Assembly: GCA_045128735.1 (NCBI GenBank)
Contig: JBGVRT010000005.1
Coordinates: forward strand, 7,843 to 71,842
Direction of reading: 5' to 3'
Length of the DNA: 64,000 nt
From: Eubacteriales bacterium
GTDB taxonomy: Bacteria; Bacillota; Clostridia; Oscillospirales; CAG-272
Position numbers and translations under genes: made by a program. The first letter of the stretch is position 1, and the number at the start of each line of letters is the position of its first letter. Under the pieces are notes generated by a model, which was given only the letters and a program-made list of their open reading frames with translations, was not told where the DNA came from and ran no database searches. Positions 36,123 through 51,507 of this stretch are shown here, one piece after another.

Positions 36123-36158
36123 CTCCTATGTATCTGGAATTTGTCGGATACCTAATAT

Positions 36159-36178: not shown

Positions 36179-36188
36179 ATTTTGAAGG

Positions 36189-36216
36189 CGACATAACTCT
36201 CGTTATGTCGCTTTTT
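36189..36216 (+). terminator. Palindromic site C (CGACATAAC TCTC GTTATGTCG) followed by CTTTTT; terminator-like
   Basis: 9-bp stem, 4-nt loop and a T-run. Same centre orientation as site B. Confidence 0.45.
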
Positions 36217-36353
36217 ACTTAGTGGACGGCATATTTATTAAGCTTCCTATGTAAATAGGAAATTTTTTAGGAATGTTTTGTAGTGTTCACTAATTGCCTT
36301 CTTGTTAATTTAGAAAATTTATCGGTTGCATGTGAAATGGAGGGGATAACCGA

Positions 36354-36968
36354 ATGAGGTACGAAGCGGAAATAAAAGAGTTTCTGATTGAAAATGCCAT
36401 ACATCTTATTGCCGAAGGCGGCTTTGAAAAAGCGACAACTAAGGAACTTACTTACTGCGGAGGTCATCTGCCGGATTTCAAGATGAACGAGGTATATATT
36501 TACCGTTTTTTCGGTAGCAAGGAAAAACTATACGAGACAGCTTTTGTTCGATTGGATTCGGAGCTTATTCAAGCCTTTAAGAACGGTACGGAAATCGTCG
36601 GTGGCTTTGGTGGTGACATTAAGCGCAAGTTAAATGAATTTTTCATTTTAGCTTGGCGGTTCATCTTGGGTAACGAAGAGCGTTGCCGTTGCTATGTTAG
36701 ATATTACTATTCGATCTATTTCAAAGGTGATTCCCGAATGTCTCACAAGAAACTTTTCGAGGGAATCATAACGGAAGTGACTCCGATCTTTAAAGAAGAG
36801 GCGGACGTCGAAGCTATATTACACAGCGTTTTTACCGCAATGTTTGATTTTGCCATTCGTGTGTATAACGGTGAGCTTGAGGATAGTGATATTAACAGAC
36901 CCCATATCTTCAATGTGCTCTACTGTATGATGGCGACATATTTCAAGGAGTCGGTAAAAGCGTCGTAG
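36354..36968 (+). CDS. TetR-family transcriptional regulator
   Basis: N-terminal HTH region FLIENAIHLIAEGGFEKATTKELTYCGG ... VYIYRFFGSKEKLYETAF. 204 aa. GGAGGGG RBS. Confidence 0.6.
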   Translation: MRYEAEIKEFLIENAIHLIAEGGFEKATTKELTYCGGHLPDFKMNEVYIYRFFGSKEKLYETAFVRLDSELIQAFKNGTEIVGGFGGDIKRKLNEFFILAWRFILGNEERCRCYVRYYYSIYFKGDSRMSHKKLFEGIITEVTPIFKEEADVEAILHSVFTAMFDFAIRVYNGELEDSDINRPHIFNVLYCMMATYFKESVKAS

Positions 36969-36986
36969 ATTGCGTAGGAGACTGAA

Positions 36987-37229
36987 TTGAAAAAGCAAGA
37001 AGAAGCAAAGAAAATCGAACAAAAAACTGAAAGCAAGGTAGTGTATATTGCTGCAAGCACAAATACTTGTATTTCTTGTGGCAGAGAAATACCTGAAGGT
37101 ATATTTGTCTGTATGGAGTGCGAGCAGGGATTGTTTCGTCCGAAATGTGTGTTTTGTAATACACCCCTACAAAATGGGCAATCCGTTTGTATGAAATGCA
37201 GCGATATGTTCTTGCGCAGAAAACCTTAA
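36987..37229 (+). CDS. Small double zinc-ribbon protein
   Basis: CISCG...CMEC and CVFCN...CMKC. TTG start 7 nt after AGGAG. Confidence 0.4.
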   Translation: MKKQEEAKKIEQKTESKVVYIAASTNTCISCGREIPEGIFVCMECEQGLFRPKCVFCNTPLQNGQSVCMKCSDMFLRRKP

Positions 37230-37280
37230 TTGAAAGTCCACACATATTTATCATTGTAATTTTAAGAGAGGAGGATAGCG

Positions 37281-39896
37281 ATGCCCAAAAACAGAAAAGA
37301 ATCTGACAATAAACTCATTAAGGGCGCGATGATTGCGGGCACCGCAATAGCAGGATTTTTTGCGCTTGTAGGGCAAAAGATATATAGAGGCATAAAGTTT
37401 GATAAGGTAATTGGTAAGGATGATCCAAACGCTACCGTCAAACGCATCAATAATATGAAGCGAGTTGCTGTGATGATTGGATTGGCAATTCTCATCCTTA
37501 TTATAATTATGCTACTGCTCCGTGGTTGTCAAGGCGGCGAGCCACCACACGGTTCTGTCGATATTCCCGGTAACGTCATAGACCCTCAGCCAACGGAGAT
37601 AACGCCAAAGGCAGATTTGGAGTTTAATAAGGACAATGCCGAAGAAAACCTTTCGTTTGACGTAGAGGGGATGAACGGCGGAGATAGTGAGAGTATTCTT
37701 TACCGCGTAGTGGCTACATACAATTCGGATTTCGTTTTGAAATACGATATGACGATCCGTGAGGATGAAGAATTTCAAAAGCTTGCTGAAATACTGAAAA
37801 TTAAGGTTGAGCTTATGAAGACAGACGGTGATGCGCTTTTGTATGACGGTCTGCTCTCCGATATGTCGGCTATTGAAATTGCTCTGATTGCCGACAAGGA
37901 TACCACAACCGAGTATCTGTTTCGTATCACTATGTATCTTGATGCTCCGCTTAGTGAGCAGTATTATGGACAAAAGTTGATAGCCGATATGTCTTGGTGG
38001 ATCGAAGAGCAGGACAATATTTCGATTGCCAACAACGAATTTACTACTGTCTCCAAAACGACACCGCCCGATCCGCCTGCCATAACACCGAATTTAAGCT
38101 TTATCACGAAAAATGAAGGCGATAACACCGCATTTGATATGCGGCATATTATGAACGGCGATAGTCAGACAAGATATTTTGCCTTTGAGGTAACTCACGG
38201 CGAAGATATAAAGATGGGTATTCAAAACGCCATTGTGACTGACAGCAAGCTGAAGGAAGTGCTGAATGTCAAGGTTGAACTTGTTGGAGAAAACGGAAAC
38301 ACCACGCTTTACGAAGGTTTGTTGAAAGATCTTACCGTAGAACATACCCTCGCCCCAAACAACAGCAACAAGACAACAGTTTATTATAAAGTCACGGTCA
38401 CAGCGAACGGCTTGACCGAGGCATACTGCGAGACGAAGATCGTTTGTGATCTCTCGTGGTCGCTGATCGGAACGACGGAACAGCTTAAGGTTCCCAACAA
38501 TAGCTTTATTGCTTACTATAAGCCCGTAACACCACCCGATCCCGTTGTTACTCCCGATTTGATTTTTGTCGTGAAGAACGAGGGCGACAACACAGCTTTC
38601 GATATGAAGGATATCGAAAACGGCGACAGCCAAACAAAGTATTTTGCTTTTGAGGTTACTCATGGCGAAGATATTAAGGTTGCTATCAAAAATGCCATTA
38701 CCGTTGACAGTAATCTTCGAGACGTATTGAAAGTGAAGGTAGAGCTTGTAGGTGAAAACGGTAATACCACTCTCTACGAGGGTCTGCTAAAGGATCTCAG
38801 TGTTGAACACACACTTGCTGAGAACGCAAATGACAAAACGACAGTTTATTATAAAGTAACTGTTACCGCAGATTGTTTGACAGAAACATATTGTGAAAAC
38901 AAATTGGTGTGCGACTTGGTATGGTCGCTCGTCGGAACGACCGAGCAGCTTAAAGTATCCAACAATACTTTTGTTGCTTACGACAAGCCCGTAACCCCTC
39001 CCGATCCTCCGCCCCCTCCTGTGATTACTCCCGATTTGAAATTTATCGAGAAAAACGAGGGTGATAACACAGCCTTCGATATGAAGGATATTGAAAACGG
39101 AGATAGTCAAACAAAGTATTTTGCTTTTGAGGTGACTCACGGCGAAGACATTAAGGTTGTGATCAAGAATGATGTTGTTCTTGACAGCAAGCTTAATGAG
39201 GTTATCAAGGTTAAGGTTGAACTTGTGGGTGAGAACGGAAATACAATTCTGTACGAGGGATTGTTGAAAGATCTTACCGCAGAACATATTCTTCCTAAAA
39301 ACGATAGCAATAAAACAACTGTATATTACAAAGTTACCGTTGTTGCTGACGGTTTGACTGAGGATTATTGTGAAGCAAAGCTTGTTTGCGACCTCTCTTG
39401 GTCACTTAGTGGAACAAGTGAGCAGCTTAAAGTGCCGAGCAATAGCTTTGTTGCCTACGATAAACCTGTTACTCCGCCCCCTCCACCGCCCGAAACAGCA
39501 ACATCTATCGAGCTTACTGCAAAGGATGGGTATGAAAATATCCCCTTTGATGTAAAAAATATGCTTCCCGGTGACATGGCGACACAATATTATTGTGTTT
39601 CGGTTACCCATAACAAGAGCGAGTCTGTCCGTTTTTATATCAATGTTGACACGACTCAAAAGCTCTCAAATGTACTTAGAGTAAAAATCGAGCAACTTAT
39701 CCCCGATGCGGCGGATAAGATTCTGTATGATGGGTTGATGAAGGACTGCACCGCAGTTGATGTGAGTGTTACAGCTACTTCTGAAACAATTACTCCCATT
39801 TATTATCGTATAACCGTTTATACCAATGGCGCAGAGGTTGGCAACGAATATGTGGGCGAAAGCCTTACCGCTGATTTCTCGTGGCAATTACAGTAA
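37281..39896 (+). CDS. Membrane-anchored protein with five tandem TasA/camelysin-like domains
   Basis: N-terminal TM segments are followed by five about 150-aa units, each with FD(M/V)xxxxxGDSxTxYFxFEV(T)H ... LYxGLLKD ... YYK(V/I)TV ... DxSW, joined by PPDP/PPPPP linkers. GAGGAGG RBS. Confidence 0.7.
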   Translation: MPKNRKESDNKLIKGAMIAGTAIAGFFALVGQKIYRGIKFDKVIGKDDPNATVKRINNMKRVAVMIGLAILILIIIMLLLRGCQGGEPPHGSVDIPGNVIDPQPTEITPKADLEFNKDNAEENLSFDVEGMNGGDSESILYRVVATYNSDFVLKYDMTIREDEEFQKLAEILKIKVELMKTDGDALLYDGLLSDMSAIEIALIADKDTTTEYLFRITMYLDAPLSEQYYGQKLIADMSWWIEEQDNISIANNEFTTVSKTTPPDPPAITPNLSFITKNEGDNTAFDMRHIMNGDSQTRYFAFEVTHGEDIKMGIQNAIVTDSKLKEVLNVKVELVGENGNTTLYEGLLKDLTVEHTLAPNNSNKTTVYYKVTVTANGLTEAYCETKIVCDLSWSLIGTTEQLKVPNNSFIAYYKPVTPPDPVVTPDLIFVVKNEGDNTAFDMKDIENGDSQTKYFAFEVTHGEDIKVAIKNAITVDSNLRDVLKVKVELVGENGNTTLYEGLLKDLSVEHTLAENANDKTTVYYKVTVTADCLTETYCENKLVCDLVWSLVGTTEQLKVSNNTFVAYDKPVTPPDPPPPPVITPDLKFIEKNEGDNTAFDMKDIENGDSQTKYFAFEVTHGEDIKVVIKNDVVLDSKLNEVIKVKVELVGENGNTILYEGLLKDLTAEHILPKNDSNKTTVYYKVTVVADGLTEDYCEAKLVCDLSWSLSGTSEQLKVPSNSFVAYDKPVTPPPPPPETATSIELTAKDGYENIPFDVKNMLPGDMATQYYCVSVTHNKSESVRFYINVDTTQKLSNVLRVKIEQLIPDAADKILYDGLMKDCTAVDVSVTATSETITPIYYRITVYTNGAEVGNEYVGESLTADFSWQLQ
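38079..39491 (+). repeat. Three highly similar 465-477-nt in-frame tandem repeats (domains 2-4)
   Basis: Units start at 38079, 38544 and 39021. Their translations are mostly identical (for example KNEGDNTAFDMKDIENGDSQTKYFAFEVTHGEDIKV). Confidence 0.85.
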
Positions 39897-39911
39897 AGGA
39901 GGAAAAGGTAT

Positions 39912-40460
39912 ATGAATGAGCAACAATTAAAGAAAAAGTTAACAGTGATGATCGTAACCGTCGTCCTCCTTTCCATAGGACTCACGCTTACCAGCTTTGC
40001 TTTAGCTACCTCTATCGCGCAAGTTCGCAACAATCGTTTTGCCATGAGTATGGGCGTGGAGCTCACCATCAATGACGGCAAACCTGTTGTAGATGTAACC
40101 GATATGGTTTTTGCACCGGGAGAAACCTACCAAAGTGAGTTTCCTATTGCAAATCTCGGTACATTTGACGTGTGGTATCGCGTGTATTTCACCGATGTAG
40201 AAGGAGTGCTGAAGGATTACATAACAGTCACAATTAAAGAAGCCGATGGAACGGTTCTCTGCAAGGGAACAATGAGCGAACTCGGTTCCAACAAGGTTGC
40301 GGTAAGCTCACTTGCCGCCGGAGAGAAAAAAACACTTACCATTGAATTTTATTTCTCGTCCGAGGCGGGCAACACCGCACAAGGACAGTCGGTATCCTTC
40401 AACATTACCGCAAATGCAACGCAAAAGCAAAATAATCCCGATAAGGATTTCGGTAATTGA
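39912..40460 (+). CDS. TasA/camelysin-like secreted subunit
   Basis: TM/signal region ending TSFALATSIAQVRNNRFAMSMGVELTI aligns with the TasA GTFAFFSD...NNTFAAGTLDL region. 182 aa. Immediately upstream of the signal peptidase gene. Confidence 0.6.
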   Translation: MNEQQLKKKLTVMIVTVVLLSIGLTLTSFALATSIAQVRNNRFAMSMGVELTINDGKPVVDVTDMVFAPGETYQSEFPIANLGTFDVWYRVYFTDVEGVLKDYITVTIKEADGTVLCKGTMSELGSNKVAVSSLAAGEKKTLTIEFYFSSEAGNTAQGQSVSFNITANATQKQNNPDKDFGN

Positions 40461-40471
40461 AGGAGGAACGA

Positions 40472-41206
40472 ATGAAAAAAGCATTACAAATTACAAAAAC
40501 GGTGTTAGTGTGGCTTGTAGTCGCCTTCGCCGTTGGAATGATGATATTCACATTGATTTCGGTAAGCACGTTTGATAAAACGGATAGAAACATATTTGGC
40601 TTCAAATTCTTCATCGTAACGAGTGATTCAATGTCAGCCACCGATTTTGACGCAGGAGACATTGCGATCTCAAAGAATGTTGATCCGAAAGTGTTAAAGG
40701 AAGGTGACATCATTACGTTCTTGTCGCAGGATCCTGATAGCTTCGGCGAGATTATCACACATAAGATCAGACGTTTGACGACCGATGCAAACGGTCGCCC
40801 CGGTTTTATCACCTACGGTACAACAACGGATACGGATGATAAAACTGTTGTTACGCACGAATACGTTGTCGGTCAATACATTGGCAAGATACCGAAGGTA
40901 GGTACGTTTTTTCAGTTTCTTAAAACGACACCCGGCTATATTATTTGTATTCTTGTTCCTTTTCTGCTTCTTATTCTTTCTCAAGGACTTAATTGCATCC
41001 GTCTGTTCCGTCAGTACAAGAAAGAACAAATGGAAGAAATGAACGCCGAGCGAGCAAAGATTGAGGAGGAACGCGCCGAAAGCCAGCGCATGATGGCGGA
41101 GCTTCTTGAACTGAAAGCACAGCTTGCCAAACAAAACCAATCTGATGGAACACCCTCAGCACCTATGTCCGAGGTGAGTGCGGAAAGCACAACGGACGAA
41201 ACATAA
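40472..41206 (+). CDS. sipW: SipW-type (ER/archaeal-type, S26B) signal peptidase I with C-terminal TM and coiled-coil extension
   Basis: Motifs FIVTSDSMSATDFDAGDIAI (catalytic Ser), GDIITF and EIITHKI (His). A second TM near residue 160 is followed by an E/K/Q-rich tail. AAGGAGG precedes the ATG at 40472. Confidence 0.8.
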   Translation: MKKALQITKTVLVWLVVAFAVGMMIFTLISVSTFDKTDRNIFGFKFFIVTSDSMSATDFDAGDIAISKNVDPKVLKEGDIITFLSQDPDSFGEIITHKIRRLTTDANGRPGFITYGTTTDTDDKTVVTHEYVVGQYIGKIPKVGTFFQFLKTTPGYIICILVPFLLLILSQGLNCIRLFRQYKKEQMEEMNAERAKIEEERAESQRMMAELLELKAQLAKQNQSDGTPSAPMSEVSAESTTDET

Positions 41207-41279
41207 AAGATGTTTAGCAGAAAGCCTGCTTTACATAGTTAGTCTAACAAAAAATATGCCAAAAAGGAGGTAAGAAAAA

Positions 41280-41936
41280 ATGACTAACACAAAGACAACC
41301 AAGCGCTCACTTCTCGCAAGCGTCATGGCACTGTTCCTCTGCTTCACGATGCTGCTCGGGACGACATTCGCTTGGTTTACAGACAGCGTTACCAGCGCAA
41401 ACAATATTATCAAAGCTGGTAATCTGGACATCGAGCTTTATCACAGCGATAAGGCAATAACCGATGAAAAGGTTGGCGAAAGCACCAAGCTTTTCGACGA
41501 AGTAGCTCTTTGGGAGCCCGGCGTAATGGTATGGGAAGAGCTTACAGTTAAGAATGAGGGCGACCTTGCTCTTAAGTATCAGCTTACTCTCAACGTGCTT
41601 GAGGCAACCGAAATCGACGGTGTATCCTTTGCATCTATGTTGAAGGTTGCACTTGTTGACGATGGATTTGAGTACACCCGTGAGAACGTAGAGGCTATTG
41701 CAGCTGACGAATGGCAGGATCTTGCAACCTTTACTCTTGCAGGTAAGCTTGACAAAACAGAAAATGACGTTTACGGAATCGTTATCTGGTGGCAGCCCTC
41801 CGATAATGACAACCTGTTCAATATGAACAATGGCAACAAGGGCAAGGAAGTTAGCGTTCAGGTTGGCGTAACCCTTCTCGCTACTCAGCTTGAGGCTGAA
41901 AACGATGCATTTGGCAACGATTACGATGAGGACGCA
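41280..41936 (+). repeat. Copy 1 of an about 0.66-kb near-identical 5' coding module (partner at 47642-48298)
   Basis: Manual alignment shows long identical runs, for example tgggaagagcttacagttaagaatgagggcgaccttgctcttaagtatcagcttactctcaacgtgcttgaggcaaccgaaatcgacggtgtatcctttgc in both copies. Confidence 0.85.
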
Positions 41937-44222
41937 TGGGTTGAGGGCTATAAGGTTTATAGCGCAGAAGATCTTAATGCAGCTATCGCAAACGGCGAGA
42001 CTGAAATTGCTCTGATGGCTGATGTAGAGCTTGAAGAGCCTATCGTAATTCCCGCACCCGCAGTGGCTACATACTCTGCAAGAAATGCGGTTGTTATCGA
42101 CCTTAACGGCAAGACCATCACCGGTGCGGTTGGACGCGATGCAGAGGGTAACCGTGTCCACGTTATTGTAAACAACGGCAACGCGGTAATCAAGAACGGT
42201 ACCGTCACTTCCGCTGGCGTTAACGGCGGTTCTGCTATCTATAATGCTGAAGGTGCAACCTTGACCGTTGAGGATGTAATCCTGAACGGTGCACCTCAGG
42301 AAGGCGAAACTTGGCCCTCCTACACCGTTAACAACTATGGCACTTTGACTGTGACCGATAGCTCTATTTACGGCGTGCAGGGTATCATCGCTACTAACAA
42401 TACTGCCAACACAACAGTTAATAACGTAATTGCTTACAGAGATGGTTGGAGCTCCGGTCATGTGTTCTACACCTCCTCCACCGCTAAGGTAACCGTTAAC
42501 GGCGGCATCTACACCAACGACGGCAATGGTGTCGACGGCACGTTGATTTATGGCGGCGAAACCGTTATTAACGGCGGTACCTTCATTCTTCAAGAGGGTA
42601 CGTACTTTGCATTGTTCGCAGACTCGAAGCTGACTGTTAATGACGGCGATTTCTCCAACATTAAGAGCGTTCTTGCTTGGGGCGGTGCTATGACTGTTAA
42701 CGGCGGCACCTTCGGCTTTGATCCTACTGCTTATGTTGGCTCCGGCTATAAGGCTACCGAAGCAAACGGCGTTTGGACTGTTGCATTCCCTCAGGAATCT
42801 TTCGATGCTCTGATTGACGGCGCTGCTGATGATGCCACCATCGAGATTCCTGCTGGTACCTACACTTTCCCCGCTGCCGATTTGAAGGCTGGTCAGACCC
42901 TGAACTGTGCTCCTGGTACTGTTTTTGAGGGTGCCAAGTTGAATGCTAACGGTGCTACCATTGTAGGCGCTACCTTCTCTAATGCTGCACAGTCTAATAC
43001 TGTTAATGGTATCTATAAGGATTGCACCTTTACTGGCAGCAACGGCTTGCGTTGGGGCTATGCAGGTGATGTTGTCGTATTTGAAAACTGTGTCTTCAGC
43101 GGTTCTACGTATGGCGTCCATTTCGATGGTGGCGCAACTAAGGTTGTCTTCAAGAATTGCACTTTCAGCGGCTTCAACGCTATGGCTGGTTCTATTGAGC
43201 TGGTTACCTTTGAAGGCTGTACCTTTGTTGCAAACGGTAAGAGCAACTACAACGGCATCAATATGTGGGGCAACACTGAAATGACCAACTGCACCTTCGT
43301 CTTTGACGGTACTGCTGATTACGAGTGGATCGACCTCTGCGCTGGAAATACGTATGCTACCTTCACCAACTGTGTTGTGACCGATGGTGAAAAGGAGTAT
43401 GGTGTCGAAGAATACGTATCTAAGCGTGAGAATAGTGGTGTTATCACTGTTGATGGCAAGCAGATTGTCCACAATGCTTCCGCTCTGCAATACGCAGTTG
43501 ATAATGTTGCTGATGGTACCACCATCGCTCTCGGCGCTGACATCGCCGGCGACGTAACTGTTGCTCAAAAGCCTGATGTCAAGATCACCATTGATGGCAA
43601 CGGCCATGCCTTCGCAGGTGTACTCCTTGTAGACGGTAAGTCCGCAACCTACACCACTGCAGGCTTGACCATCAAGAGTGTGGTATTCAAGTCTGAGACC
43701 ATTTCCGCTGACGCTTGCATTCAGTTGGGCAATGGCACCAATGAAACCCGTTACACCTGCAACGTAACTGTTGACGGTTGTACCTTTGACGTTCCCGGCG
43801 CAGTTGGCGTTAAGTCCTACACCGGCGGCGACAAGAACGTGATCATCACCGGTTGCACCGCGACCGCAAATACCCACTCTCTTGCTCAGCTCAAGGGTGT
43901 TGATGGCGTTCTGGTAGAGAACTGCAAGGTTTATTCTAAGAATGGTATCAACTTTAACAACAGTGACAATGTTATTGTGAAGGGTTGTGAAGTTGATGTA
44001 AAGGGTTATGCAGTTCGCTTTGGCGAAAGCTCCGGTGGCACAGGTGCTGCTGAAACTTATAAGATCGAAAACTGCACTCTGAAGTCCCAGAATGATGATG
44101 GCGATGCTGCCGTTGTTCTCCGTGGTACTGCAGACAATTCGACCCTGACTATCGTGAACACCACCATTGTTGGAACTCCCGATATCCAGAATACTGCTAC
44201 GAACGCAAAGGTCGTGAAGTAA
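41280..44222 (+). CDS. SipW-dependent-signal protein 1: TasA-like N-module plus parallel beta-helix passenger (980 aa)
   Basis: Signal KRSLLASVMALFLCFTMLLGTTFAWFTDSVTSANNIIKAGNLDIEL. The C-terminal about 750 aa is rich in NGG/TVNGG/NC(T/V)F beta-helix-like repeats. No cell-wall anchor. Confidence 0.75.
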   Translation: MTNTKTTKRSLLASVMALFLCFTMLLGTTFAWFTDSVTSANNIIKAGNLDIELYHSDKAITDEKVGESTKLFDEVALWEPGVMVWEELTVKNEGDLALKYQLTLNVLEATEIDGVSFASMLKVALVDDGFEYTRENVEAIAADEWQDLATFTLAGKLDKTENDVYGIVIWWQPSDNDNLFNMNNGNKGKEVSVQVGVTLLATQLEAENDAFGNDYDEDAWVEGYKVYSAEDLNAAIANGETEIALMADVELEEPIVIPAPAVATYSARNAVVIDLNGKTITGAVGRDAEGNRVHVIVNNGNAVIKNGTVTSAGVNGGSAIYNAEGATLTVEDVILNGAPQEGETWPSYTVNNYGTLTVTDSSIYGVQGIIATNNTANTTVNNVIAYRDGWSSGHVFYTSSTAKVTVNGGIYTNDGNGVDGTLIYGGETVINGGTFILQEGTYFALFADSKLTVNDGDFSNIKSVLAWGGAMTVNGGTFGFDPTAYVGSGYKATEANGVWTVAFPQESFDALIDGAADDATIEIPAGTYTFPAADLKAGQTLNCAPGTVFEGAKLNANGATIVGATFSNAAQSNTVNGIYKDCTFTGSNGLRWGYAGDVVVFENCVFSGSTYGVHFDGGATKVVFKNCTFSGFNAMAGSIELVTFEGCTFVANGKSNYNGINMWGNTEMTNCTFVFDGTADYEWIDLCAGNTYATFTNCVVTDGEKEYGVEEYVSKRENSGVITVDGKQIVHNASALQYAVDNVADGTTIALGADIAGDVTVAQKPDVKITIDGNGHAFAGVLLVDGKSATYTTAGLTIKSVVFKSETISADACIQLGNGTNETRYTCNVTVDGCTFDVPGAVGVKSYTGGDKNVIITGCTATANTHSLAQLKGVDGVLVENCKVYSKNGINFNNSDNVIVKGCEVDVKGYAVRFGESSGGTGAAETYKIENCTLKSQNDDGDAAVVLRGTADNSTLTIVNTTIVGTPDIQNTATNAKVVK

Positions 44223-44230
44223 TTCCCCCC

Positions 44231-44303
44231 GCCACCCAACCCCTTCGGGGGTTGGGCGGCAATTAAAGCGCATAAGATTTGTGCTTGTGCGTTTTAATTG
44301 CCG
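44231..44303 (+). terminator. Tandem double hairpin at the 3' end of paralog 1
   Basis: Hairpin 1 is CCCAACCCC-TTCG-GGGGTTGGG. Hairpin 2 is CGGCAATTAAAGCGCATAAG...CTTGTGCGTTTTAATTGCCG, whose G-U pairs only work in the + strand RNA. Confidence 0.6.
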
Positions 44304-44353
44304 TTGAAAACGACAAATGTTAGCCAACATCAACAACAATAGGAGGTAAAAGA

Positions 44354-47326
44354 ATGACTAACACAAAATCCACAAAGCGTGCATTGCTTACAAGCGTTTT
44401 GGCTTTGTTCCTTTGCTTTACAATGCTGCTTGGGACGACATTCGCTTGGTTCACCGACAGTGTGACAAGCGCAAACAACATTATCAAGTCGGGCAATCTT
44501 GATATTGAGCTTTATCATAGTGACGATAAAGCAGATCGCGCAAAAGTCGATAACACTACGGTGCTATTTGACGATATTGCCCTTTGGGAGCCCGGTGCAG
44601 TTGTTTATGAGACTTTGGAAGTTGTAAATGAGGGTGATCTTGCACTCAAATATCAGCTTGCTGTCAATGTAACGAATGCAACGGCAAACGCCAATGGCAA
44701 CACGCTTTCAAATATATTGAAAGTGGGAGTTATCGAGGGCGGTGCTACCATCACCGATCGCGTTGCTTTGATTGGTGCGGTAGATGAGTGGATGTCACTC
44801 TCTTCATTCGTTGAGGCAGGCGATCTTGTCAATAAAAACGAGAGCGACATATACACGGTCGTAATCTATTGGGAGCCGAGTGAATACGATAACGATTACA
44901 ATATGAACAACGGTAAGGGTGATCCCCTTACGCTTGATATCGGCGTAACACTCTTTGCAACTCAGCTTGCTGCCGAAATGGACTCGTTTGATGAAAATTA
45001 CGACAAGGACAGCGCAGTTGCTACCGTTGCAGAAGCTGAAGCCATGATGGTTGAAAACAAGGATGTTACCTTGGCAGGCTGTAATGAGCCCGATAGCGTA
45101 TTGAATGTTCCCGCTACTTATACAGGCACGTTGACTTTGGTGAATACTAATGTCAAGTCCGTACAGGCTGAAAAAGATGCAAACATTGTTGTTCTTGGCA
45201 ATGTAACAGTCGATGCTAATGGTAGTGGTATCGCTATGATGGCTTTGGATACGGATGCATTTGACGGTTCCGCAATTTCCGCAAACGGTGTACTTAATAT
45301 TTCCGGAAGCGGTAAACTCACTGCTATTGCGGCTGATGTAAACGGTGCCTCCGGTATCGGAGGCAAGAATGCCACCGAAATCAATATCGAGGGTGTTACT
45401 ATTGATTACGTTTCGGGTAGCTTTGCTTATGGCGTAGGTTCTGATACAAAGTATTATAAGGATGCTCCTGAAGGCGGCGCGGCAATCGGTTCCGATATTG
45501 ACGGCGCGGTTATCACCTTGAATAACGTAATTGTAAATAAGGCAATCGGCGGTTCTAAGGCAGCTGGTATCGGTGCTCGTTTCCACAAGGGCGTTACCGT
45601 TAATATTGTTGATTCCGCTATTGCATATGTAGAGGGCGGTGTTTCTGCCGCAGGTATCGGTGGTAGCCGTGTAAGCAACGGTGCAACCGAGAACGGAACG
45701 ACCATTAACATCAGCGGCTCTACAATCAACGCAAAGGGCGGCGTATATGGCGCAGGTATTGGTTCGGGCTATGATACCCACTGCCAATCCGTTCAGCCTT
45801 TGTGCACCATTAACATCGACGATTCGATCATCACCGCCGAGGGTGGACAGCATGCAGCAGGTGTTGGTACGGGTTATCACAACGCAGCTCTTGATGGTGT
45901 GATTAAGAACAGTACTGTAAATGCAAAATCCGGCGAGATGTGGTATAAGGATAGTTATACTTGCGCTCAGAACATCGGATTTGGTGTTGTAGATCCGGCT
46001 CGTGAGGGACAGCAGACCGATAGCAAACTCGTTAATAATGGAGTAGAAATCAGAATTCCTGCGCCCGGAAAAGCGGCTATCGTTTCTTCCGCTGACGAGT
46101 TGAAAGCGGCTCTTGCCAGTAAAATTCCCAATATCTTCCTTTCCGCAAACATTCAGCTGAATGAAAATATGGATGTTTTAGCCAATACGATCATTAACGG
46201 TAACGGCTACTCTGTTTTTCGCGCTGACGGAACGGCATTGATGACTCTCTCTGAAGATGAAAGTTCTACTATCTATACTGGTGCTATGTTTACCGTAAAG
46301 AGCGGAGCCACATTAACTCTTGAAAACGTGGTTGTTGACGGTGGTGCCATCTGGACCGGTGAAATCAATGAGGTTCTTCAGAGAGGAACCGTTAACGCAG
46401 GTGTTACCGCAACCGGTGCTCTCGTTTCTACCGAGGCTAATGCTCATCTCGTACTCAACGAGGGCGCAGTACTTCAGAACAATGATGGTGCAAACGCGGT
46501 TTCCCTCAATACCCGTGCAGGATGCACTCTTACCATAAACGGCGGTGAGATTATCAACAACCATTCCGCAGCAGGTGCGATCTGGGGCGGCGGTGCAATC
46601 ACCCTCAACGCTGGTAAGATCAACGGCAATCACGGCGGCATCGGCGGCGCAATTCGTGCCGTAACAAACATTGGTACGCTCCTTACGATGAACGGCGGCG
46701 AGATAAACCACAACTATTCCGACGGTAACGGCGGCGCTATCTGGGCAGGCTCGAGTAGCAGTAACAACGTGTACGTGCTGAACGGCGGCGAAATGGCTTA
46801 TAACTATTCCGCAACGACCGGCGGTGCTATCTACGCAGGATACTACGAGACCGTTAAGATCGGCGGAACCTTCAAGATGCACGACAATAGCTGTGCCGCG
46901 GATCTCGGCGCTGAGATCCGATTCCACGATCACGCAAGCCTTGTTATGACGGGCGGTGAGGTTTCCAATGAGGCGGATAACGCATTCTACCTCAACAACA
47001 ACTCCGCTTCCATCACCGGCGGTAAGTACGTCGGCAACTTCGGCTACAGCGGCGGCTTGGGTCTTACCCTCGGCGAGGTAGAGATTGACGGTGTTATCAC
47101 CTACAATCTTGCCACTAACCATAATACCGCATATCTTGCGGCAGAATTCGGCAACTTCAAGTTCACTATAAACGAGACCGCTTCCAACTTTGCTCAGTTC
47201 AACTTCAAACCTGCGGAAGGATACATCTACACCGAAGGCGATGAAGCAAAGCTTGTTTGCATGAACGATGGTTATGAAACCTATTGGGATGCATCTACAA
47301 GCACCTTTAGACTTCAGGCAAAATAA
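44354..47326 (+). CDS. SipW-dependent-signal protein 2: TasA-like N-module plus GGAI (Pmp-like) beta-helix passenger (990 aa)
   Basis: Same signal peptide (LLGTTFAWFTDSVTSANNIIKSGNLDIEL). The C-terminal region has repeated GGAIWGG, GGAIRAV, NGGAIWAG and TGGAIYAG motifs. Confidence 0.75.
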   Translation: MTNTKSTKRALLTSVLALFLCFTMLLGTTFAWFTDSVTSANNIIKSGNLDIELYHSDDKADRAKVDNTTVLFDDIALWEPGAVVYETLEVVNEGDLALKYQLAVNVTNATANANGNTLSNILKVGVIEGGATITDRVALIGAVDEWMSLSSFVEAGDLVNKNESDIYTVVIYWEPSEYDNDYNMNNGKGDPLTLDIGVTLFATQLAAEMDSFDENYDKDSAVATVAEAEAMMVENKDVTLAGCNEPDSVLNVPATYTGTLTLVNTNVKSVQAEKDANIVVLGNVTVDANGSGIAMMALDTDAFDGSAISANGVLNISGSGKLTAIAADVNGASGIGGKNATEINIEGVTIDYVSGSFAYGVGSDTKYYKDAPEGGAAIGSDIDGAVITLNNVIVNKAIGGSKAAGIGARFHKGVTVNIVDSAIAYVEGGVSAAGIGGSRVSNGATENGTTINISGSTINAKGGVYGAGIGSGYDTHCQSVQPLCTINIDDSIITAEGGQHAAGVGTGYHNAALDGVIKNSTVNAKSGEMWYKDSYTCAQNIGFGVVDPAREGQQTDSKLVNNGVEIRIPAPGKAAIVSSADELKAALASKIPNIFLSANIQLNENMDVLANTIINGNGYSVFRADGTALMTLSEDESSTIYTGAMFTVKSGATLTLENVVVDGGAIWTGEINEVLQRGTVNAGVTATGALVSTEANAHLVLNEGAVLQNNDGANAVSLNTRAGCTLTINGGEIINNHSAAGAIWGGGAITLNAGKINGNHGGIGGAIRAVTNIGTLLTMNGGEINHNYSDGNGGAIWAGSSSSNNVYVLNGGEMAYNYSATTGGAIYAGYYETVKIGGTFKMHDNSCAADLGAEIRFHDHASLVMTGGEVSNEADNAFYLNNNSASITGGKYVGNFGYSGGLGLTLGEVEIDGVITYNLATNHNTAYLAAEFGNFKFTINETASNFAQFNFKPAEGYIYTEGDEAKLVCMNDGYETYWDASTSTFRLQAK

Positions 47327-47341
47327 TTATTTTCAGTCCGT

Positions 47342-47410
47342 CCTATCCCTTTTTGTGAGGGATAGGCGGCGATCAAAGGGTATAAATCCGTTTGTGCCTT
47401 TTGATCGCCG
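47342..47410 (+). terminator. Tandem double hairpin at the 3' end of paralog 2
   Basis: CCTATCCCT-TTTTGTG-AGGGATAGG, then CGGCGATCAAAGGG...CCTTTTGATCGCCG. Same architecture and GG|CGGC junction as the other two copies, but different stem sequences. Confidence 0.6.
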
Positions 47411-47459
47411 AAGACTAAGACAACGACGGTGAAATGCCGAACGGAAAGGAGACAATATT

Positions 47460-47552
47460 ATGCAACTTTCACAAATGGCAAATCTGCACTACGGGGGGGG
47501 GTATAGTCACTCTCGGACTGTGCACATTGCACAACCACCCGAACGGAATTAA
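47460..47552 (+). CDS. Candidate 30-aa leader ORF containing a G9 tract (speculative)
   Basis: GGAAAGGAGA RBS lies 7 nt before the ATG. Translation is MQLSQMANLHYGGGYSHSRTVHIAQPPERN. Not in the ORF track, and no homology evidence. Confidence 0.2.
   Translation: MQLSQMANLHYGGGYSHSRTVHIAQPPERN
47493..47501 (+). repeat. G9 homopolymer tract
   Basis: Nine consecutive G in the leader upstream of paralog 3. It is the longest homopolymeric G/C run I saw in the window. Confidence 0.9.
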
Positions 47553-47641
47553 GGTTCGTTAAAAACCGCCTTTTGGTTCTCTCAGCATAGCCAAAATGTC
47601 GGTTCGCATATATGCTGAAAGAAACTAAATAGGAGGTCTTT

Positions 47642-48298
47642 ATGACAAAGACAAGAAACACAAAGTCTGCTCTGTTGACAAGCATTCTTGCACTGTTCCT
47701 CTGCTTCACGATGCTGCTCGGGACGACATTCGCTTGGTTCACAGACAGCGTTACCAGCGCGAATAATATTATCAAAGCTGGTAATCTTGACATCGAGCTT
47801 TATCACAGCGATAAGGCGGTAACCGATGACAAGGTTGGCGAGAACACCAAACTTTTCGACGAAGTAGCTCTTTGGGAGCCCGGTGTAATGGTATGGGAAG
47901 AGCTTACAGTTAAGAATGAGGGCGACCTTGCTCTTAAGTATCAGCTTACTCTCAACGTGCTTGAGGCAACCGAAATCGACGGTGTATCCTTTGCGTCTAT
48001 GCTGAAGGTTGCGCTTGTTGACGATGAATTTGAGTACACCCGTGAGAACGTAGAGGCTATTGCAGCTGACGAATGGCAGGATCTTGCAACCTTTACTCTT
48101 GCAGATAAGCTTGACAAAACAGAAAATGACGTTTACGGAATCGTTATTTGGTGGCAGCCCTCCGAGAACGACAATGTGTTCAATATGAACAATGGCAATA
48201 AGGGCAAAGAAGTAAGCGTCAAGGTTGGCGTAACGCTTGTTGCAACTCAGCTTGATGCCGAAAACGATGCGTTTGGTAACGATTACGACAAAGATGCT
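47642..48298 (+). repeat. Copy 2 of the near-identical 5' coding module
   Basis: See the entry at 41280-41936. Confidence 0.85.
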
Positions 48299-49540
48299 AT
48301 GTATTCTGATGCTGCGGATGTTTGGGATGGAACCGTGGACACCGCATGGTATAACGATACAGATACGATATTCACTTTGTCAACGGCTGAGGAATTTGCC
48401 GGATTTGCTGAACTTGTAAACGAAGGAAATAAATTTTCTGGTAAAACCGTCGAGCTTGAATCTAACATAGATTTTAATGGCGAAGAATGGACTCCTATCA
48501 AAAATTTTGCAGGTACTTTGAAAGGTAACGGAAATGCCGTCAGCAATTTTGAAATCGATGCAACAGCGGGTCATGCCGGTTTCTTCGATGTATTGGAGTG
48601 GGCAACGATTGAAAATTTAACGTTGAGTGACATCACCGCAACTGTTGGTAACTACCGCTTTGGCGTACTTTCACGCAGCATTAACCAGACTAACGTAGAT
48701 AATGTTACAGTTAAAAACGTAAACGTTACAACTGCTGGTTCTGAGGCTTTTGTTGCGGGCTTGTTCTGTCAGGGTACCGTTAACTCTAATATGGAGGTTA
48801 ATAACTGCACCGTTGAGAATTTTACCGTTAATGCGGAAAATGGTGCGATGATAATCGGCGGTATTACGGGTTTTGTTCAGAAAAACGGTACTGAAGCTGA
48901 AGGAACAAACATTTTTGAGAATCTCAATGTTAAGAACTTCAAGGTTATCGCAAATGATACCGACGGATACTGCAATATCGGTGGTCTCGTAGGTCAGACT
49001 CAATCGGTTTGGCAGAATCCCAGATTTAACAATTGCTCCGTTAGCGGACTTGACGTTACCGCAACGGGCACGGTTAACGTAGGAGGCTTCATGTGCGCTC
49101 CCGGCTCTTACACATATGCAGAAGAGTGCACGGTGGAGGGTAAGATCGATGTTTCGGGTGTAACCTCTGTTAATAATTATGCAGGCGGCTTCTTCGGCGA
49201 TTACGGCTGGGGCGATAATGTTAGCAAGGGTGACCACAAGGTTACTAACTGCGTAGCAGACGTTGATATTACCACCAAGTACGCTTCAGTAGGTGGCTTT
49301 GTTGGCTCGGGTACGAATTCTGAAGGAAAAAATAAAAACATAACCTTCACTAACTGTGAAGCAAAGGGAACTGTATCTCTTGTTGATGGCGGTACTGCTA
49401 ATGTTGGTGGCTTTGCCGGACAGACCGATCGAGGCATCTATATTAACTGTTCTGCTGCACAGGATCCGTTCATTGGAAAGGTTCTGGATGGTTATACCCT
49501 TGTAGATGATGGCAACGGAACGTTGACTGTAACCAAATAA
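47642..49540 (+). CDS. SipW-dependent-signal protein 3: TasA-like N-module plus GLUG-like repeat passenger (632 aa)
   Basis: The signal and first about 219 aa differ from paralog 1 at only about 20 positions. The C-terminal part has IGGITGFV, IGGLVGQ, VGGFMC, AGGFFGD, VGGFVGSG and VGGFAGQ repeats. Confidence 0.75.
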   Translation: MTKTRNTKSALLTSILALFLCFTMLLGTTFAWFTDSVTSANNIIKAGNLDIELYHSDKAVTDDKVGENTKLFDEVALWEPGVMVWEELTVKNEGDLALKYQLTLNVLEATEIDGVSFASMLKVALVDDEFEYTRENVEAIAADEWQDLATFTLADKLDKTENDVYGIVIWWQPSENDNVFNMNNGNKGKEVSVKVGVTLVATQLDAENDAFGNDYDKDAMYSDAADVWDGTVDTAWYNDTDTIFTLSTAEEFAGFAELVNEGNKFSGKTVELESNIDFNGEEWTPIKNFAGTLKGNGNAVSNFEIDATAGHAGFFDVLEWATIENLTLSDITATVGNYRFGVLSRSINQTNVDNVTVKNVNVTTAGSEAFVAGLFCQGTVNSNMEVNNCTVENFTVNAENGAMIIGGITGFVQKNGTEAEGTNIFENLNVKNFKVIANDTDGYCNIGGLVGQTQSVWQNPRFNNCSVSGLDVTATGTVNVGGFMCAPGSYTYAEECTVEGKIDVSGVTSVNNYAGGFFGDYGWGDNVSKGDHKVTNCVADVDITTKYASVGGFVGSGTNSEGKNKNITFTNCEAKGTVSLVDGGTANVGGFAGQTDRGIYINCSAAQDPFIGKVLDGYTLVDDGNGTLTVTK

Positions 49541-49558
49541 TTTTAGCAAATCAAGTCC

Positions 49559-49628
49559 CCCAAGCCCTTCGGGGCTTGGGCGGCAATTAAAGCGCATAAG
49601 AAACGATGCTTGTGCGTTTTAATTGCCG
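49559..49628 (+). terminator. Tandem double hairpin at the 3' end of paralog 3
   Basis: CCCAAGCCC-TTCG-GGGCTTGGG has a compensatory C:G to G:C change relative to copy 1. The second hairpin is nearly the same as in copy 1. Confidence 0.6.
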
Positions 49629-49667
49629 AATTTATCTTTTTCCTTTCTTGTGATAGGAGGTCATCAA

Positions 49668-50417
49668 ATGAAAAAACACAAGAGTGATATATACATTTCC
49701 GATAAAACCAAATTGACCGAAAAGGCGTTTAAACAAAGTATTACGATCTCTATTATAGGCATCTTACTCTGTATGGTTGCGCTTTGTTCGGTTACTTGGG
49801 CGTGGTTTAGTACGGAAATATCATCGTCGCCGAGTGATATTAAATCCGCATATTGTGATGTTACTGTTTCCGTCGCAAATGAAAACAATATATTGGATCC
49901 TGTTGATGGAAAATATAATTTTATAAAGAATAAAGCGTACCAAATACAAATAACTGCAACAGGAAGTGCAGAAACAGCTTACTGCATTTTGAAAATAGAC
50001 GGTGCGGACTATTATACTGCGCAAATCCCGACACAGACGGGGATCGTTTTCACTTTGCAATTTGAAGATGATACTCCCGTGGAGATCATCACTTGTTGGG
50101 GAACATCAAGTGTTCCTAACGAACTTAGAAACTTTGCGAATAACGGATTATATTTAAACTGTGAAGTAGTGGAAACTTTGCCTGTTATTATTCCTGAAGC
50201 AACAAAAATTGACGAGACCACTACTACCCAGCCCAACAGCACTGAATCAACCGCCACGGAAACGACGAATTTAGAAACGACATCGGACGCTCCCAGTGAA
50301 GAGACAACCGCTGCGGAAACACCGGCGACGGAACCCACTGATACAGAAGAGACCCCTGTAACAGAAACAACGATTGATACCACATCATCTACCGCTTCTT
50401 CGGAAGTGAGTGAATGA
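49668..50417 (+). CDS. Secreted protein with related signal (TWAWFSTE) and T/E/S-rich C-terminal tail; possible accessory or minor subunit
   Basis: AGGAGG RBS before the ATG at 49668. The TM ends in CSVTWAWFSTEISSS. The tail is TTTQPNSTESTATETTNLETTSD... Confidence 0.5.
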   Translation: MKKHKSDIYISDKTKLTEKAFKQSITISIIGILLCMVALCSVTWAWFSTEISSSPSDIKSAYCDVTVSVANENNILDPVDGKYNFIKNKAYQIQITATGSAETAYCILKIDGADYYTAQIPTQTGIVFTLQFEDDTPVEIITCWGTSSVPNELRNFANNGLYLNCEVVETLPVIIPEATKIDETTTTQPNSTESTATETTNLETTSDAPSEETTAAETPATEPTDTEETPVTETTIDTTSSTASSEVSE

Positions 50418-51507
50418 TTGTCACGCATATTACTTAAAAAATATTATGGAAACAAAACACGAAGCTATATCTTGTTTCGCTATGACACTTGAATCGATGC
50501 AATCCTTTGTGGCGTTTGAGGAAAACAAGGGTGCTTCGGACAATATGTTACGCAGATTCAAATCAGCAGTGAAAATGCTCTATAAGTTTTTGCCCGAGGA
50601 CAAGCTTCTTACTCGTGAACGGCTTTTAGAATGGCGTGCAGATTTGAATGAGAAGGGATACGCCTATCAGACAGTACAAAATTATGTTATATGGATCAAC
50701 CTGTATCTCGACTATGTAGGACTTTCAGACATACGTTTTAATCGCGGTAAGATGAAGGATATATCCGAAGTCGAGTTCGGATACCTTACGGCAATCGAGC
50801 CAACCGACAAAAGAGACCGCAAGGACGTAGTATGGCTCTGTCGATGCAGATGCGGGACAATGGTTGAAATGCCTGCAACTCGTCTGCTACTTAACAACAC
50901 ATTGAGCTGTGGTTGTATTTTGAAAGAGAAGATCAAGAGGGTAAACAAGTATTTTGACGGAACCTCTTTGGAGCAATCACTAAAGGATCAAGTGGTAAGC
51001 ACCCGTAGCACAAGCGGATACGTTGGTGTTACAAAAAAGAGAGATAAGTGGCAAGCTTATATAACATACAAACGACAGCACATTAGCCTCGGCGTCTACT
51101 CTAAATTGGAGGATGCGGTCAAGGCTCGTGCAAGAGGAAAAGAAGCTGTTATGGAGGATGCCGCTGAGCTATTGAAGATATATGAGGCTATACACGAAAA
51201 TGATGAGGCACTTCCAAACAAGGTAACTTCACCAAGACGAGACTTTTCGTATGAACCGCGAGTAATAAATAATCAGCCGACTACCGCTGCAAAACGCGTT
51301 GATAATACAAGCGGTTATACCGGGGTTGCATTTAGGAAGAGTAAATGGGAGGCTCGTATTTGCTATAACAAGTTGCGATATATTCTCGGACGGTTTGAAA
51401 CACAAGATGAAGCAATCAAAGCAAGGCAAGATGCAGAGAATTTACTTAAAACGGATCCAAATGCTTTTGTTGAACATTATGAAGAGTGTCCAAAACACGC
51501 AATATAG
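50410..51507 (+). CDS. Regulator-like protein: integrase core-binding (SAM-like) domain, Cys4 motif and two AP2 DNA-binding domains; no recombinase catalytic domain
   Basis: N-terminal MLRRFKSAVKMLYKFL...YAYQTVQNYVIWINLYLDYVG (CB-like); CRCRCG...CGC. AP2-like segments SGYVGVTKKRDKWQAYITYKRQHISLGVYSKLEDAVKAR and SGYTGVAFRKSKWEARICYNKLRYILGRFETQDEAIKAR. Start is uncertain (50410 GTG, 50446 or 50482 ATG). Confidence 0.55.
   Translation: MNDCHAYYLKNIMETKHEAISCFAMTLESMQSFVAFEENKGASDNMLRRFKSAVKMLYKFLPEDKLLTRERLLEWRADLNEKGYAYQTVQNYVIWINLYLDYVGLSDIRFNRGKMKDISEVEFGYLTAIEPTDKRDRKDVVWLCRCRCGTMVEMPATRLLLNNTLSCGCILKEKIKRVNKYFDGTSLEQSLKDQVVSTRSTSGYVGVTKKRDKWQAYITYKRQHISLGVYSKLEDAVKARARGKEAVMEDAAELLKIYEAIHENDEALPNKVTSPRRDFSYEPRVINNQPTTAAKRVDNTSGYTGVAFRKSKWEARICYNKLRYILGRFETQDEAIKARQDAENLLKTDPNAFVEHYEECPKHAI

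Follow-up and report, generated by a model that had tools for sequence, protein, structure and literature searches.

We analysed the SipW/TasA-type locus at 36354-50417 of a 64,000-nt stretch of a Eubacteriales genome (contig JBGVRT010000005.1), referred to below as the window; all coordinates are window positions. A sequence-only reading had placed eight open reading frames (ORFs) here, and all eight are present at those positions, all on the plus strand. Its assignment to the SipW/TasA type is borne out by matches to TIGR02228, the SipW model and PF12389. What it overlooked is the main regulatory feature, an invertible promoter with a tyrosine recombinase gene just upstream of 36354. The conserved module begins with this recombinase gene, upstream of the operon, and comprises the following features:

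35017-35856, plus strand: Xer-like tyrosine recombinase, 279 aa, first gene of the module (Pfam Phage_integrase 1.7e-25, and SAM_1).
35865-35890, minus strand: hairpin followed by a U run, from the terminator scan (-12.5 kcal/mol, z -5.4).
35898-35915, plus strand: left recombination site, ACATAACGAGAGTTATGT, with arms ACATAA/TTATGT and the asymmetric core CGAGAG.
35916-36159: invertible segment of 244 nt, ON here, holding a hairpin (35976-36025) and a promoter (36094-36122).
36160-36177, minus strand: right recombination site 1, an inverted copy found as an 18-nt site match.
36191-36208, minus strand: right recombination site 2, a second inverted copy, likewise an 18-nt site match.
36354-36968, plus strand: TetR-like regulator, 204 aa, first gene past the switch (Pfam TetR_N E 8.1e-5, just under the cutoff).
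36987-37229, plus strand: 80-aa double zinc-ribbon protein (CxxC pairs in the translation, DZR Pfam matches on orthologues, conserved position).
37281-39896, plus strand: putative membrane-anchored stalk protein, 871 aa (repeats, AlphaFold2 model, motif statistics).
39912-40460, plus strand: minimal TasA-family subunit, 182 aa (PF12389, E 4e-9).
40472-41206, alternative start 40457, plus strand: signal peptidase I of SipW type, that is, endoplasmic reticulum (ER)/archaeal type (TIGR02228 above cutoff; SipW model E 6.5e-22).
41280-44222, plus strand: 980-aa protein with a SipW-type signal, a predicted donor strand, an N-terminal TasA-like module (N-module, residues ~1-215) and a right-handed beta-helix passenger.
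44354-47326, plus strand: 990-aa protein with an N-module 61% identical and a GGA[ILV]-repeat, beta-helix-like passenger.
47642-49540, plus strand: 632-aa protein with an N-module 92% identical to that of the 980-aa protein and a GGF/GLUG-like, M26_N-like passenger.
49668-50417, plus strand: 249-aa (249/264-aa) protein with a SipW-type signal, a predicted donor-strand segment, a small unrelated body and a Thr/Glu-rich tail.

Relatives were collected through homologues of the 871-aa protein (67 clusters) and through a scan of species-representative genomes, which gave 11 loci, all from metagenome-assembled genomes (MAGs) of gut or rumen Clostridia; related loci are labelled L001 and so on. The gene order is fixed across these relatives and runs from the tyrosine recombinase through a spacer of ~400 nt to the TetR-like, zinc-ribbon, stalk, 182-aa and SipW genes, followed by one to four N-module proteins and a strand-only protein, with synteny kept in 17 related loci. 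Conservation is strict for the trio of stalk, 182-aa and SipW genes, the multi-domain membrane protein being a strictly co-conserved partner across loci. The TetR-like gene is present in most loci and missing in L001 and L045.

The spacer between the recombinase gene and the operon has the makings of a phase switch. The 18-nt site occurs three times in the window, with no copy expected, and it is 100% conserved in 15 related loci (12 of L001-L013, together with L034, L044 and L045), where the flanks are merely 66-80% identical. Inverted copies flank the 244-nt segment, which adjoins the recombinase gene and contains the promoter TTGATT-17-TGgTATAAT (36094-36122). This promoter points outward at the operon and is the best sigma-70-type match in 34800-52600 (10/12 plus TG). 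The segment further holds a hairpin (35976-36025) that resembles a terminator in both directions, with z -5.0 on one strand and -5.6 on the other, and we infer that the minus-strand hairpin at 35865-35890 would halt leftward transcription in the OFF state before the recombinase gene. The recombinase itself is found at the same position, 73-91% identical, in 12 related loci. In NCBIfam it gave XerA-, XerD- and XerC-like matches, the best of them XerA/XerD-like and every one under its cutoff, and it does not belong to the FimB/FimE-type invertase family (28 and 23 bits with the tyrosine-type DNA invertase models, against cutoffs of ~221). We infer that this Xer-like protein is the invertase of the adjacent switch.

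Both orientations of the segment are found in nature with collinear flanks. Nine loci are ON (the window, L002, L004, L006, L007, L012, L013, L034 and L044) and seven are OFF, with the segment reversed relative to its flanks (L001, L003, L005, L008, L010, L011 and L042). An example is the pair L003 and L007, in which the left flanks are 98.6% identical and the segment is 98.2% identical yet reversed. Loci with three sites occur as L-ON-R-R (window and L004), L-L-OFF-R (L001, L005 and L010) and L-L-ON-R (L007), and the side of the segment, left or right, on which the second inverted copy lies tracks orientation among them. These states fit the products expected of inversion between any oppositely oriented pair of sites. 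Neither att-like repeats nor copies of the 18-nt site were found at the borders of the module. From these sequence comparisons we conclude that the locus carries a phase-variation switch, a predicted invertible promoter controlling the operon.

A literature search with the 18-nt site sequence found nothing, and a metagenome scan for the site returned mostly single chance matches in soil and marine contigs, the relevant ones being only L015, L026, L028, L029 and L034. At L034 (2697-4295) the same recombinase and an ON switch stand directly before an N-module gene, with no TetR, stalk, 182-aa or SipW gene between them, an arrangement that suggests the switch is a portable cassette. At L015 (1-2895) three site copies flank a reversed switch segment, and downstream is a 590-aa lipoprotein-like ORF on the opposite strand, which may reflect the joining of contigs or another cargo. 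At L009/L043 (8250-10000) the operon has a chromosomal copy that lacks both the recombinase and the 18-nt sites; its TetR-like gene is divergent (35% identity), and its regulation presumably does without phase variation. Just 3' of the operon in the window, the genes at 50410-51507 and 51517-51990 both encode proteins with repeated 'SGY.GV...W.A' units, the product of the former having an integrase SAM-like N-domain and no catalytic domain. The region 50362-51981 is co-conserved with the module in L003 (83% nucleotide identity, with the 365-aa protein 89% identical), as is the 51517-51990 gene in L002 and L006 (76% at the nucleotide level). The two proteins may be accessory DNA-binding factors of the module or of its switch.

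The genes that this promoter would control include a dedicated signal peptidase whose SDSM and THKI motifs, already pointed out from the sequence, we could confirm. It scores 63.6 bits with TIGR02228, the archaeal/ER-type signal peptidase I model (cutoff 51.85), and 78 bits with the SipW equivalog model (cutoff 190), and is SipW-like rather than a SipW equivalog. A second transmembrane segment is followed by a charged, coiled-coil-like cytoplasmic tail of ~65 aa (40970-41206), and a charged C-terminal tail is kept in the SipW orthologues (241-247 aa). B. subtilis SipW, of about 190 aa, is not known to have such a tail.

The three large proteins do share a signal and a TasA-like module of ~200 aa, as had been proposed. 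Pairwise identity among the 980-, 990- and 632-aa proteins is 92%, 61% and 60% over 215 aa, compared with 32-37% over the remainder. The Pfam family PF12389 (Peptidase_M73/camelysin; cutoff 22.5 bits) is matched by the 182-aa protein at 37 bits, the 980-aa protein at 25.1 and the 990-aa protein at 24.7, with the 632-aa protein under the cutoff at 18.8. The SipW-cognate signal model TIGR04088 (cutoff 19) gave 19.7 bits for the 980-aa, 19.8 for the 632-aa and 17.8 for the 990-aa protein and left the 182-aa and 249-aa proteins unmatched. An AlphaFold2 model of N-module residues 26-223 (71 homologues) has a mean predicted local distance difference test score (pLDDT) of 84.4; its first ~24 residues, the remainder of the signal and the presumed donor strand, are disordered. 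The top Foldseek match of this model in the PDB is the TasA fibre 8AUR (8aur_A; E 3.6e-5, TM-score 0.47/0.41), followed by the archaeal bundling pilus 7UEG and then by donor-strand-complemented chaperone-usher pilins (PapG and FimG domains). The modelling supports a TasA-fold domain with an unfolded N-terminal donor-strand segment. Searches of the PDB by sequence with the N-module, the 182-aa and 871-aa proteins and two N-module profiles gave no meaningful match (those to Rheb and heparin lyase are chance). Because no PDB chain matches by sequence, the link between the N-module and TasA rests on PF12389, the fold and shared motifs.

The 182-aa family aligns with the N-module family over its full length (hhalign probability 95.3%, E 2e-8). 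Its members are 182-185 aa long and 57-91% identical, and in all loci with sequence at this point their gene separates the stalk gene from sipW; the 182-aa protein is the candidate for major fibre subunit. The mature N-terminal segments carry an NN-x-F/I motif, seen as VRNNRFAMS in the 182-aa protein and as SANNIIKAG in the large proteins, where Asn42 is invariant; the invariant residues of the N-module read A-W-F-T-D...N42...G-N-L-D. In TasA the segment after the cleavage site is AFNDxxxxxxxxxxGTLDL, and its counterpart in the window subunits is WFTDSVTSANNIIKAGNLDI. The 249-aa protein, encoded by the last gene and found at the operon end in L001, L002, L003, L006, L009 and L011, has the related signal and T/E-rich tail ascribed to it. 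Its match to the N-module profile (probability 96.9%, E 1.4e-10) is limited to the signal and strand, and by analogy with TapA it is a candidate nucleator or cap; no TapA model was matched. The large proteins lack an LPXTG-type signal (no LP.[TSA]G motif in any of the three), in agreement with the first reading of the locus, and their C-termini are neither hydrophobic nor charged.

Two further ideas about these subunits were examined and rejected. For isopeptide locking of the BsaA kind, which uses an Asn of the donor strand, a Glu and a Lys, Asn42 and Glu79 are invariant, yet no Lys column is invariant or nearly so in alignments of 17, 71 and 46 sequences, and the BsaA-type Asn-Glu-Lys triad is therefore absent. 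The layout of the three large genes, on the same strand with no recombination sites between them, does not fit a shufflon-like exchange. The 5' modules of these genes are direct repeats (about 93% nucleotide identity between the first and third, from an alignment by eye) and could support gene conversion or copy-number change. Strong intergenic hairpins with the common core AAGCGCATAAGA follow the 980-aa gene (44266-44286) and the 632-aa gene (49581-49628; 20-bp stem, -30.7 kcal/mol, z -6.8), and these could be attenuators or processing sites that set subunit stoichiometry. A 1010-aa ORF antisense to the beta-helix gene (41307-44339, minus strand) is probably a by-product of a repetitive coding strand rich in Gly, Thr, Asn and Val codons.

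The 871-aa membrane protein had been described as five TasA/camelysin-like domains. The five repeats, of ~140 aa each, were confirmed, with the middle three 76-80% mutually identical and the outer two 32-38% identical; the TasA/camelysin-like character was not confirmed by profile comparison. From the N-terminus the protein has a cytoplasmic part, a transmembrane helix (~56-82; 51-81 in the AlphaFold2 model), a free strand, VDIPGNVIDP, and five beta-sandwich domains on Pro-rich linkers. The AlphaFold2 model (25 homologues) has a pLDDT of 80.5, with low confidence solely in the Pro linkers and at 81-103. In 61 of 68 homologues the transmembrane helix is followed by VDIPGNVIDP, a strand that is left disordered by the model. 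There are three stalk domains in 62 homologues, five in five and four in one. Variants with a single domain retain the transmembrane helix, IPGNVI strand and terminal domain, and their genes likewise run stalk, 182-aa, SipW, N-module protein.

It is the ends of these domains that suggest how the protein may work. Domains 1-4 each end in an extra hairpin strand (IANNEF, VPNNSF, VPSNSF and similar), and domain 5 is without one. Across the 68 homologues, 75 out of 87 non-terminal domains are followed by a strand of the form x[PASG][NSGD]Nx[FIV], with a turn of ~5 residues before it and a Pro linker after it, and the terminal domain ends one residue past its last core strand in 56 out of 66 proteins. 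The AlphaFold2 model has the extra strands (245-256, 401-411, 556-566 and 715-725) right behind the last core strand of their domain and ahead of the Pro linker of low confidence. Because an NNxF strand follows each domain except the last, and the same motif marks the donor strands of the subunits, the 871-aa protein would be a membrane stalk, a covalent chain complemented in cis whose last domain has an open acceptor position. A lipoprotein anchor at Cys83 (LRG-C83, invariant in 25 close homologues) was considered and is unlikely, as position -2 is Arg and the single-domain relatives have no Cys. Stalk matches to the Pfam families IRS, PLAT, DUF2500 and others were judged spurious, having no significant stretches and varying between homologues.

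Overall, we consider it probable that gut Clostridia have in this locus a self-contained module for a surface fibre or for display, phase-variable and following TasA/SipW donor-strand logic. The recombinase would flip the promoter, so that only a subpopulation expresses the operon. SipW would process the 182-aa, large and 249-aa proteins, cutting after ...GTTFA in the large ones, and removal of the signal would bare an N-terminal donor strand holding the conserved NN-x-I/F motif. The subunits would then link by donor-strand complementation as in TasA fibres, with the 182-aa protein as the main building block of the shaft and the large proteins entering the fibre through their N-modules and showing their passengers (beta-helix, GLUG-like and others) for adhesion. 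The membrane protein would form a sortase-free base, its non-terminal domains complemented in cis by the following NNxF strand to give a rigid stalk, and its last domain, without a cis strand, would take the donor strand of the first secreted subunit. Alternatively or in addition, the free membrane-proximal IPGNVI strand of the stalk may nucleate assembly in the manner of TapA, and the strand-only 249-aa protein may cap or nucleate it. The full form of this proposal is more tentative and, we judge, somewhat less likely to be right than wrong: donor-strand display in which a TasA-like stalk of one to five domains, 'pre-polymerised' in cis, captures SipW-processed subunits and mounts interchangeable giant adhesins on a TasA-type fibre under an Xer-like invertase switch, the N-module being a general 'plug' for ~900+ clusters.

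Several observations weigh against this interpretation. A profile of 202 stalk domains aligned with the N-module profile at E 0.0026 and a probability of 12%, collinear over 135 columns, and with the 182-aa family profile at E 0.023. No significant Pfam family was found on the stalk (25 homologues), and Foldseek with the whole stalk model returned generic immunoglobulin (Ig)-domain arrays, with 8AUR outside the top 50; the matches include hydin/ASH, macroglobulin and integrin domains and cis-complemented CfaB fusions. By eye, stalk and TasA-type domains share PGD/GDS, LYxGL and NxYxG...D.SW motifs, and the TasA-like nature of the stalk domains, which rests on these collinear motifs, is not established. 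That each cis strand pairs with the domain before it is a prediction drawn only from secondary structure and from where the linkers lie, and by TasA logic an anchor should donate a strand rather than accept one. The proposed polymerisation, SipW dependence and surface localisation derive from sequence, the beta-helix passengers could be enzymes rather than adhesins, and the two promoter orientations were observed across assemblies, not among the reads of one sample.

The variant that survives best dispenses with the fibre. Each large protein and the 182-aa protein would dock singly onto the open terminal stalk domain, giving sortase-independent, non-covalent display of one cargo per stalk. This would make direct use of a terminal domain without a cis strand and of subunit N-termini with the same motif, and it is in keeping with the strictly conserved triad of stalk, 182-aa and SipW genes and with a stalk length (one, three, four or five domains) that varies as expected of a wall-crossing spacer. 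Yet the N-module and the 182-aa protein keep a full TasA-like body, presumably with an acceptor groove of its own, and in TasA an acceptor groove together with a donor strand leads to open-ended polymerisation. A conserved, passenger-free 182-aa subunit is also hard to explain without a polymer. We regard single-cargo display as a serious variant of the fibre model, though an unlikely one.

The nature of the passengers bears on a second alternative. They had been read as a parallel beta-helix, GGAI Pmp-like repeats and GGF/GLUG-like repeats. The beta-helix holds for the 980-aa protein (Pfam Beta_helix, E 7.6e-16), and the GGA and GGF motifs are present; the Pmp-like label found no support, and the GLUG match reaches just 0.051. 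The 990-aa passenger has five GGA[ILV] motifs, a weak Beta_helix_3 match (0.0017) and no Pmp family at E<=0.1, and the 632-aa passenger has four GGF motifs and a match to M26_N (5.4e-4) besides that to GLUG. Among 46 relatives the passengers match BspA-type LRR_5 (six), Beta_helix (five), M26_N (four), the Pectate_lyase_5 'adhesive domain' (two) and GLUG (one). These domain matches support an adhesin-like character. An exhaustive HMMER search over 1.84 billion representatives, with clusters at 50% identity, placed 5,986 representative clusters in the N-module family at E<=0.001 and 901 at E<=1e-30, mainly from Clostridia MAGs; the best 150 matches are mostly 500-1300 aa long, with the module at residues 1-220. 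N-module plus passenger is a large, unnamed and apparently uncharacterised family of putatively SipW-dependent proteins, and the architecture is very common. The first reading knew of no characterised system of this kind; our literature search likewise found no paper describing it, the nearest being the preprint on BsaA (10.1101/2024.11.04.621531). In a distant variant without a recombinase, L046 (9001-13416), a single-domain stalk-like protein (266 aa), three short PF12389 proteins and SipW are accompanied by a separate 333-aa Beta_helix protein, so that passenger and TasA module lie in different genes.

The large proteins might, on this second alternative, be SipW-secreted enzymes or matrix components, lyase- or hydrolase-like and acting on dietary or host glycans, with the TasA-like module serving only as a tether or as a secretion or solubility domain. 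Pectate lyases and many glycosidases fold as right-handed beta-helices, Pectate_lyase_5 and NosD matches occur in members of the N-module family, and the hosts are gut or rumen Clostridia. Against it, no catalytic-family model was matched, the passengers in the 46 relatives are mostly adhesin-type modules, and phase variation is typical of surface antigens and adhesins. We think this explanation holds little promise, slightly less than single-cargo display.

The module had also been called the cargo of a conjugative element, with a suggested role in conjugation or mating-pair stabilisation. In the window it does lie between genes of a type IV secretion system (T4SS) and its coupling protein (T4CP) (VirB4-like, 10405-12900; T4CP, 15414-17213) and PcfJ, PcfK, primase-like and RecD-like helicase genes. 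The same element lies upstream of the module in L005 (94.6% over 27605-33478), and L002 has TnpV upstream and a relaxase downstream. These placements would suit a fibre that serves the element as an accessory for donor-recipient aggregation or mating-pair stabilisation, as would the report that B. subtilis matrix production favours transfer of an integrative and conjugative element (ICE) (PMC6158512). In at least six loci, however, the module is surrounded by housekeeping genes, and the nearest 8-10 kb contain no transfer genes. Five of these loci have their own recombinase (L001, L041, L042, L044 and L045), and L043 is a chromosomal copy without recombinase or sites. The chromosomal neighbours are glycosyltransferases and RelA, PFL and fucose isomerase, ribosomal proteins and SRP54, arginine biosynthesis genes, and sporulation genes. 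In addition, nucleotide homology between loci starts sharply at ~34910, the recombinase's own promoter, and the module is therefore independent of the element. The conjugative location is real in the window, yet incidental, because the module also sits in ordinary chromosomal contexts; the cargo description is true of the window and does not define the module. Given copies without T4SS genes nearby, a conjugation or mating-pair role becomes an unnecessary hypothesis, and we consider it improbable. A literature search for ICE-borne SipW/TasA loci found nothing specific, and searches of a plasmid collection with the stalk protein and the N-module gave no match.

Finally, it is very improbable that the 18-nt repeats are attachment or resolution sites of a mobile-element integrase, or that assembly artefacts account for the orientation differences. 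In favour of such readings, the recombinase is Xer-like and under all NCBIfam cutoffs, the tyrosine invertase models included, and the module is found at many genomic sites and hence mobile somehow. Against them, the inverted sites, about 245 nt apart, enclose a bidirectional terminator together with the operon's only strong promoter, otherwise collinear loci differ in the direction of the segment alone (even with 98.6%-identical flanks), the site is invariant though its flanks are ~70% identical, and site counts and positions are exactly as inversion yields, with no copies at the module borders.

The phase-variable fibre module that we favour can be compared with several known systems. It shares with B. 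subtilis tapA-sipW-tasA (8AUR; PMC9674648) an operon-encoded SipW-type peptidase, the PF12389/TasA fold, an N-terminal donor strand after the SipW site, and an accessory protein with only the N-terminal strand in common (TapA there, the 249-aa protein here). It differs in fusing the TasA-fold module to adhesin-like passengers of 400-770 aa, in up to four paralogues, in lacking a TapA homologue and in having a putative stalk of several domains anchored in the membrane. DNA inversion would exert the control here that SinR has in B. subtilis, the hosts here are anaerobic gut Clostridia, and there is no sequence-level match to TasA in the PDB. The C. perfringens sipW-bsaA-bsaB-bsaC operon (10.1101/2024.11.04.621531; PMC7395162) is likewise a clostridial SipW operon with several TasA-family paralogues, no LPXTG and a large non-TasA partner; its oligomers are membrane-associated. 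BsaA/SipW fibres were reported as membrane-associated, and multi-paralogue TasA operons have been noted near surface-filament genes (10.1101/2024.11.04.621531). BsaA subunits are locked by an N-E-K isopeptide triad, for which there is no conserved Lys here, BsaC is a separate vWA protein rather than a fusion, and no stalk or inverton is reported for the bsa operon.

Chaperone-usher tip adhesins (FimH, PapG) also fuse a strand-complemented pilin-type domain to a receptor-binding domain, and engineered CfaB/CfaE fusions (3F85/3F83) hold cis-complemented Ig-like domains in one chain. These likenesses are analogies only: the present system lacks chaperone, usher and outer membrane and has its adhesin domain at the C-terminal end, and the fold kinship is generic Ig-like. 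The switch resembles the invertible promoters of E. coli (fimS/FimB-FimE) and C. difficile (RecV switches) in its short inverted repeats, promoter segment of ~250 nt, adjacent tyrosine recombinase and control of a surface structure; it differs in having an Xer-like rather than FimB-like recombinase and often three to five site copies with several states. Inverton group 139 of Clostridia, reported with invertase group 35 (adjacent tyrosine recombinases; PMC11892184), has examples of about 254-257 nt overall, and the likeness drawn here rests on size and the adjacent tyrosine recombinase, not on the repeat motif.

With subunits fused to adhesin-like passengers, a membrane stalk of concatenated domains and an inverton, the locus would extend the TasA/SipW kind of fibre. 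In Bacillus, C. perfringens and archaea, fibres of the TasA type are known to serve as plain matrix scaffolds; here the principle would mount very large adhesins, comparably to Gram-negative pilus tip adhesins, in abundant uncultured gut Clostridia. The stalk would be a candidate membrane anchor for TasA-family fibres, whose attachment to the cell remains unsettled, and a single mechanistic study would allow many gut-microbiota surface proteins now listed as 'hypothetical' to be annotated (the 5,986 clusters, mostly 500-1300 aa). The sequence-defined Firmicutes phase switch would be trackable in metagenomes as a read-out of adhesion state. As the module also occurs on a conjugative element, such adhesion traits can spread horizontally.

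Elsewhere on the element in the window, the region 953-4074 encodes a T2SSE/T4P-type secretion ATPase (437 aa, Pfam T2SSE 4.3e-27) followed by two ORFs of ~300 aa without Pfam matches, a set that may form a Tad-like or pilus-like apparatus where the conjugative element begins. The 1318-aa protein encoded at 5322-9278, with six Listeria-Bacteroides (Flg_new) repeats (E 4.2e-87), is another large protein of surface type on this element and, as conjugation adhesin, the more conventional candidate. At 28253-31261 lies a 1002-aa fusion of an N6 DNA methylase with an SNF2/ResIII helicase, which is typical anti-restriction or defence cargo of conjugative elements.

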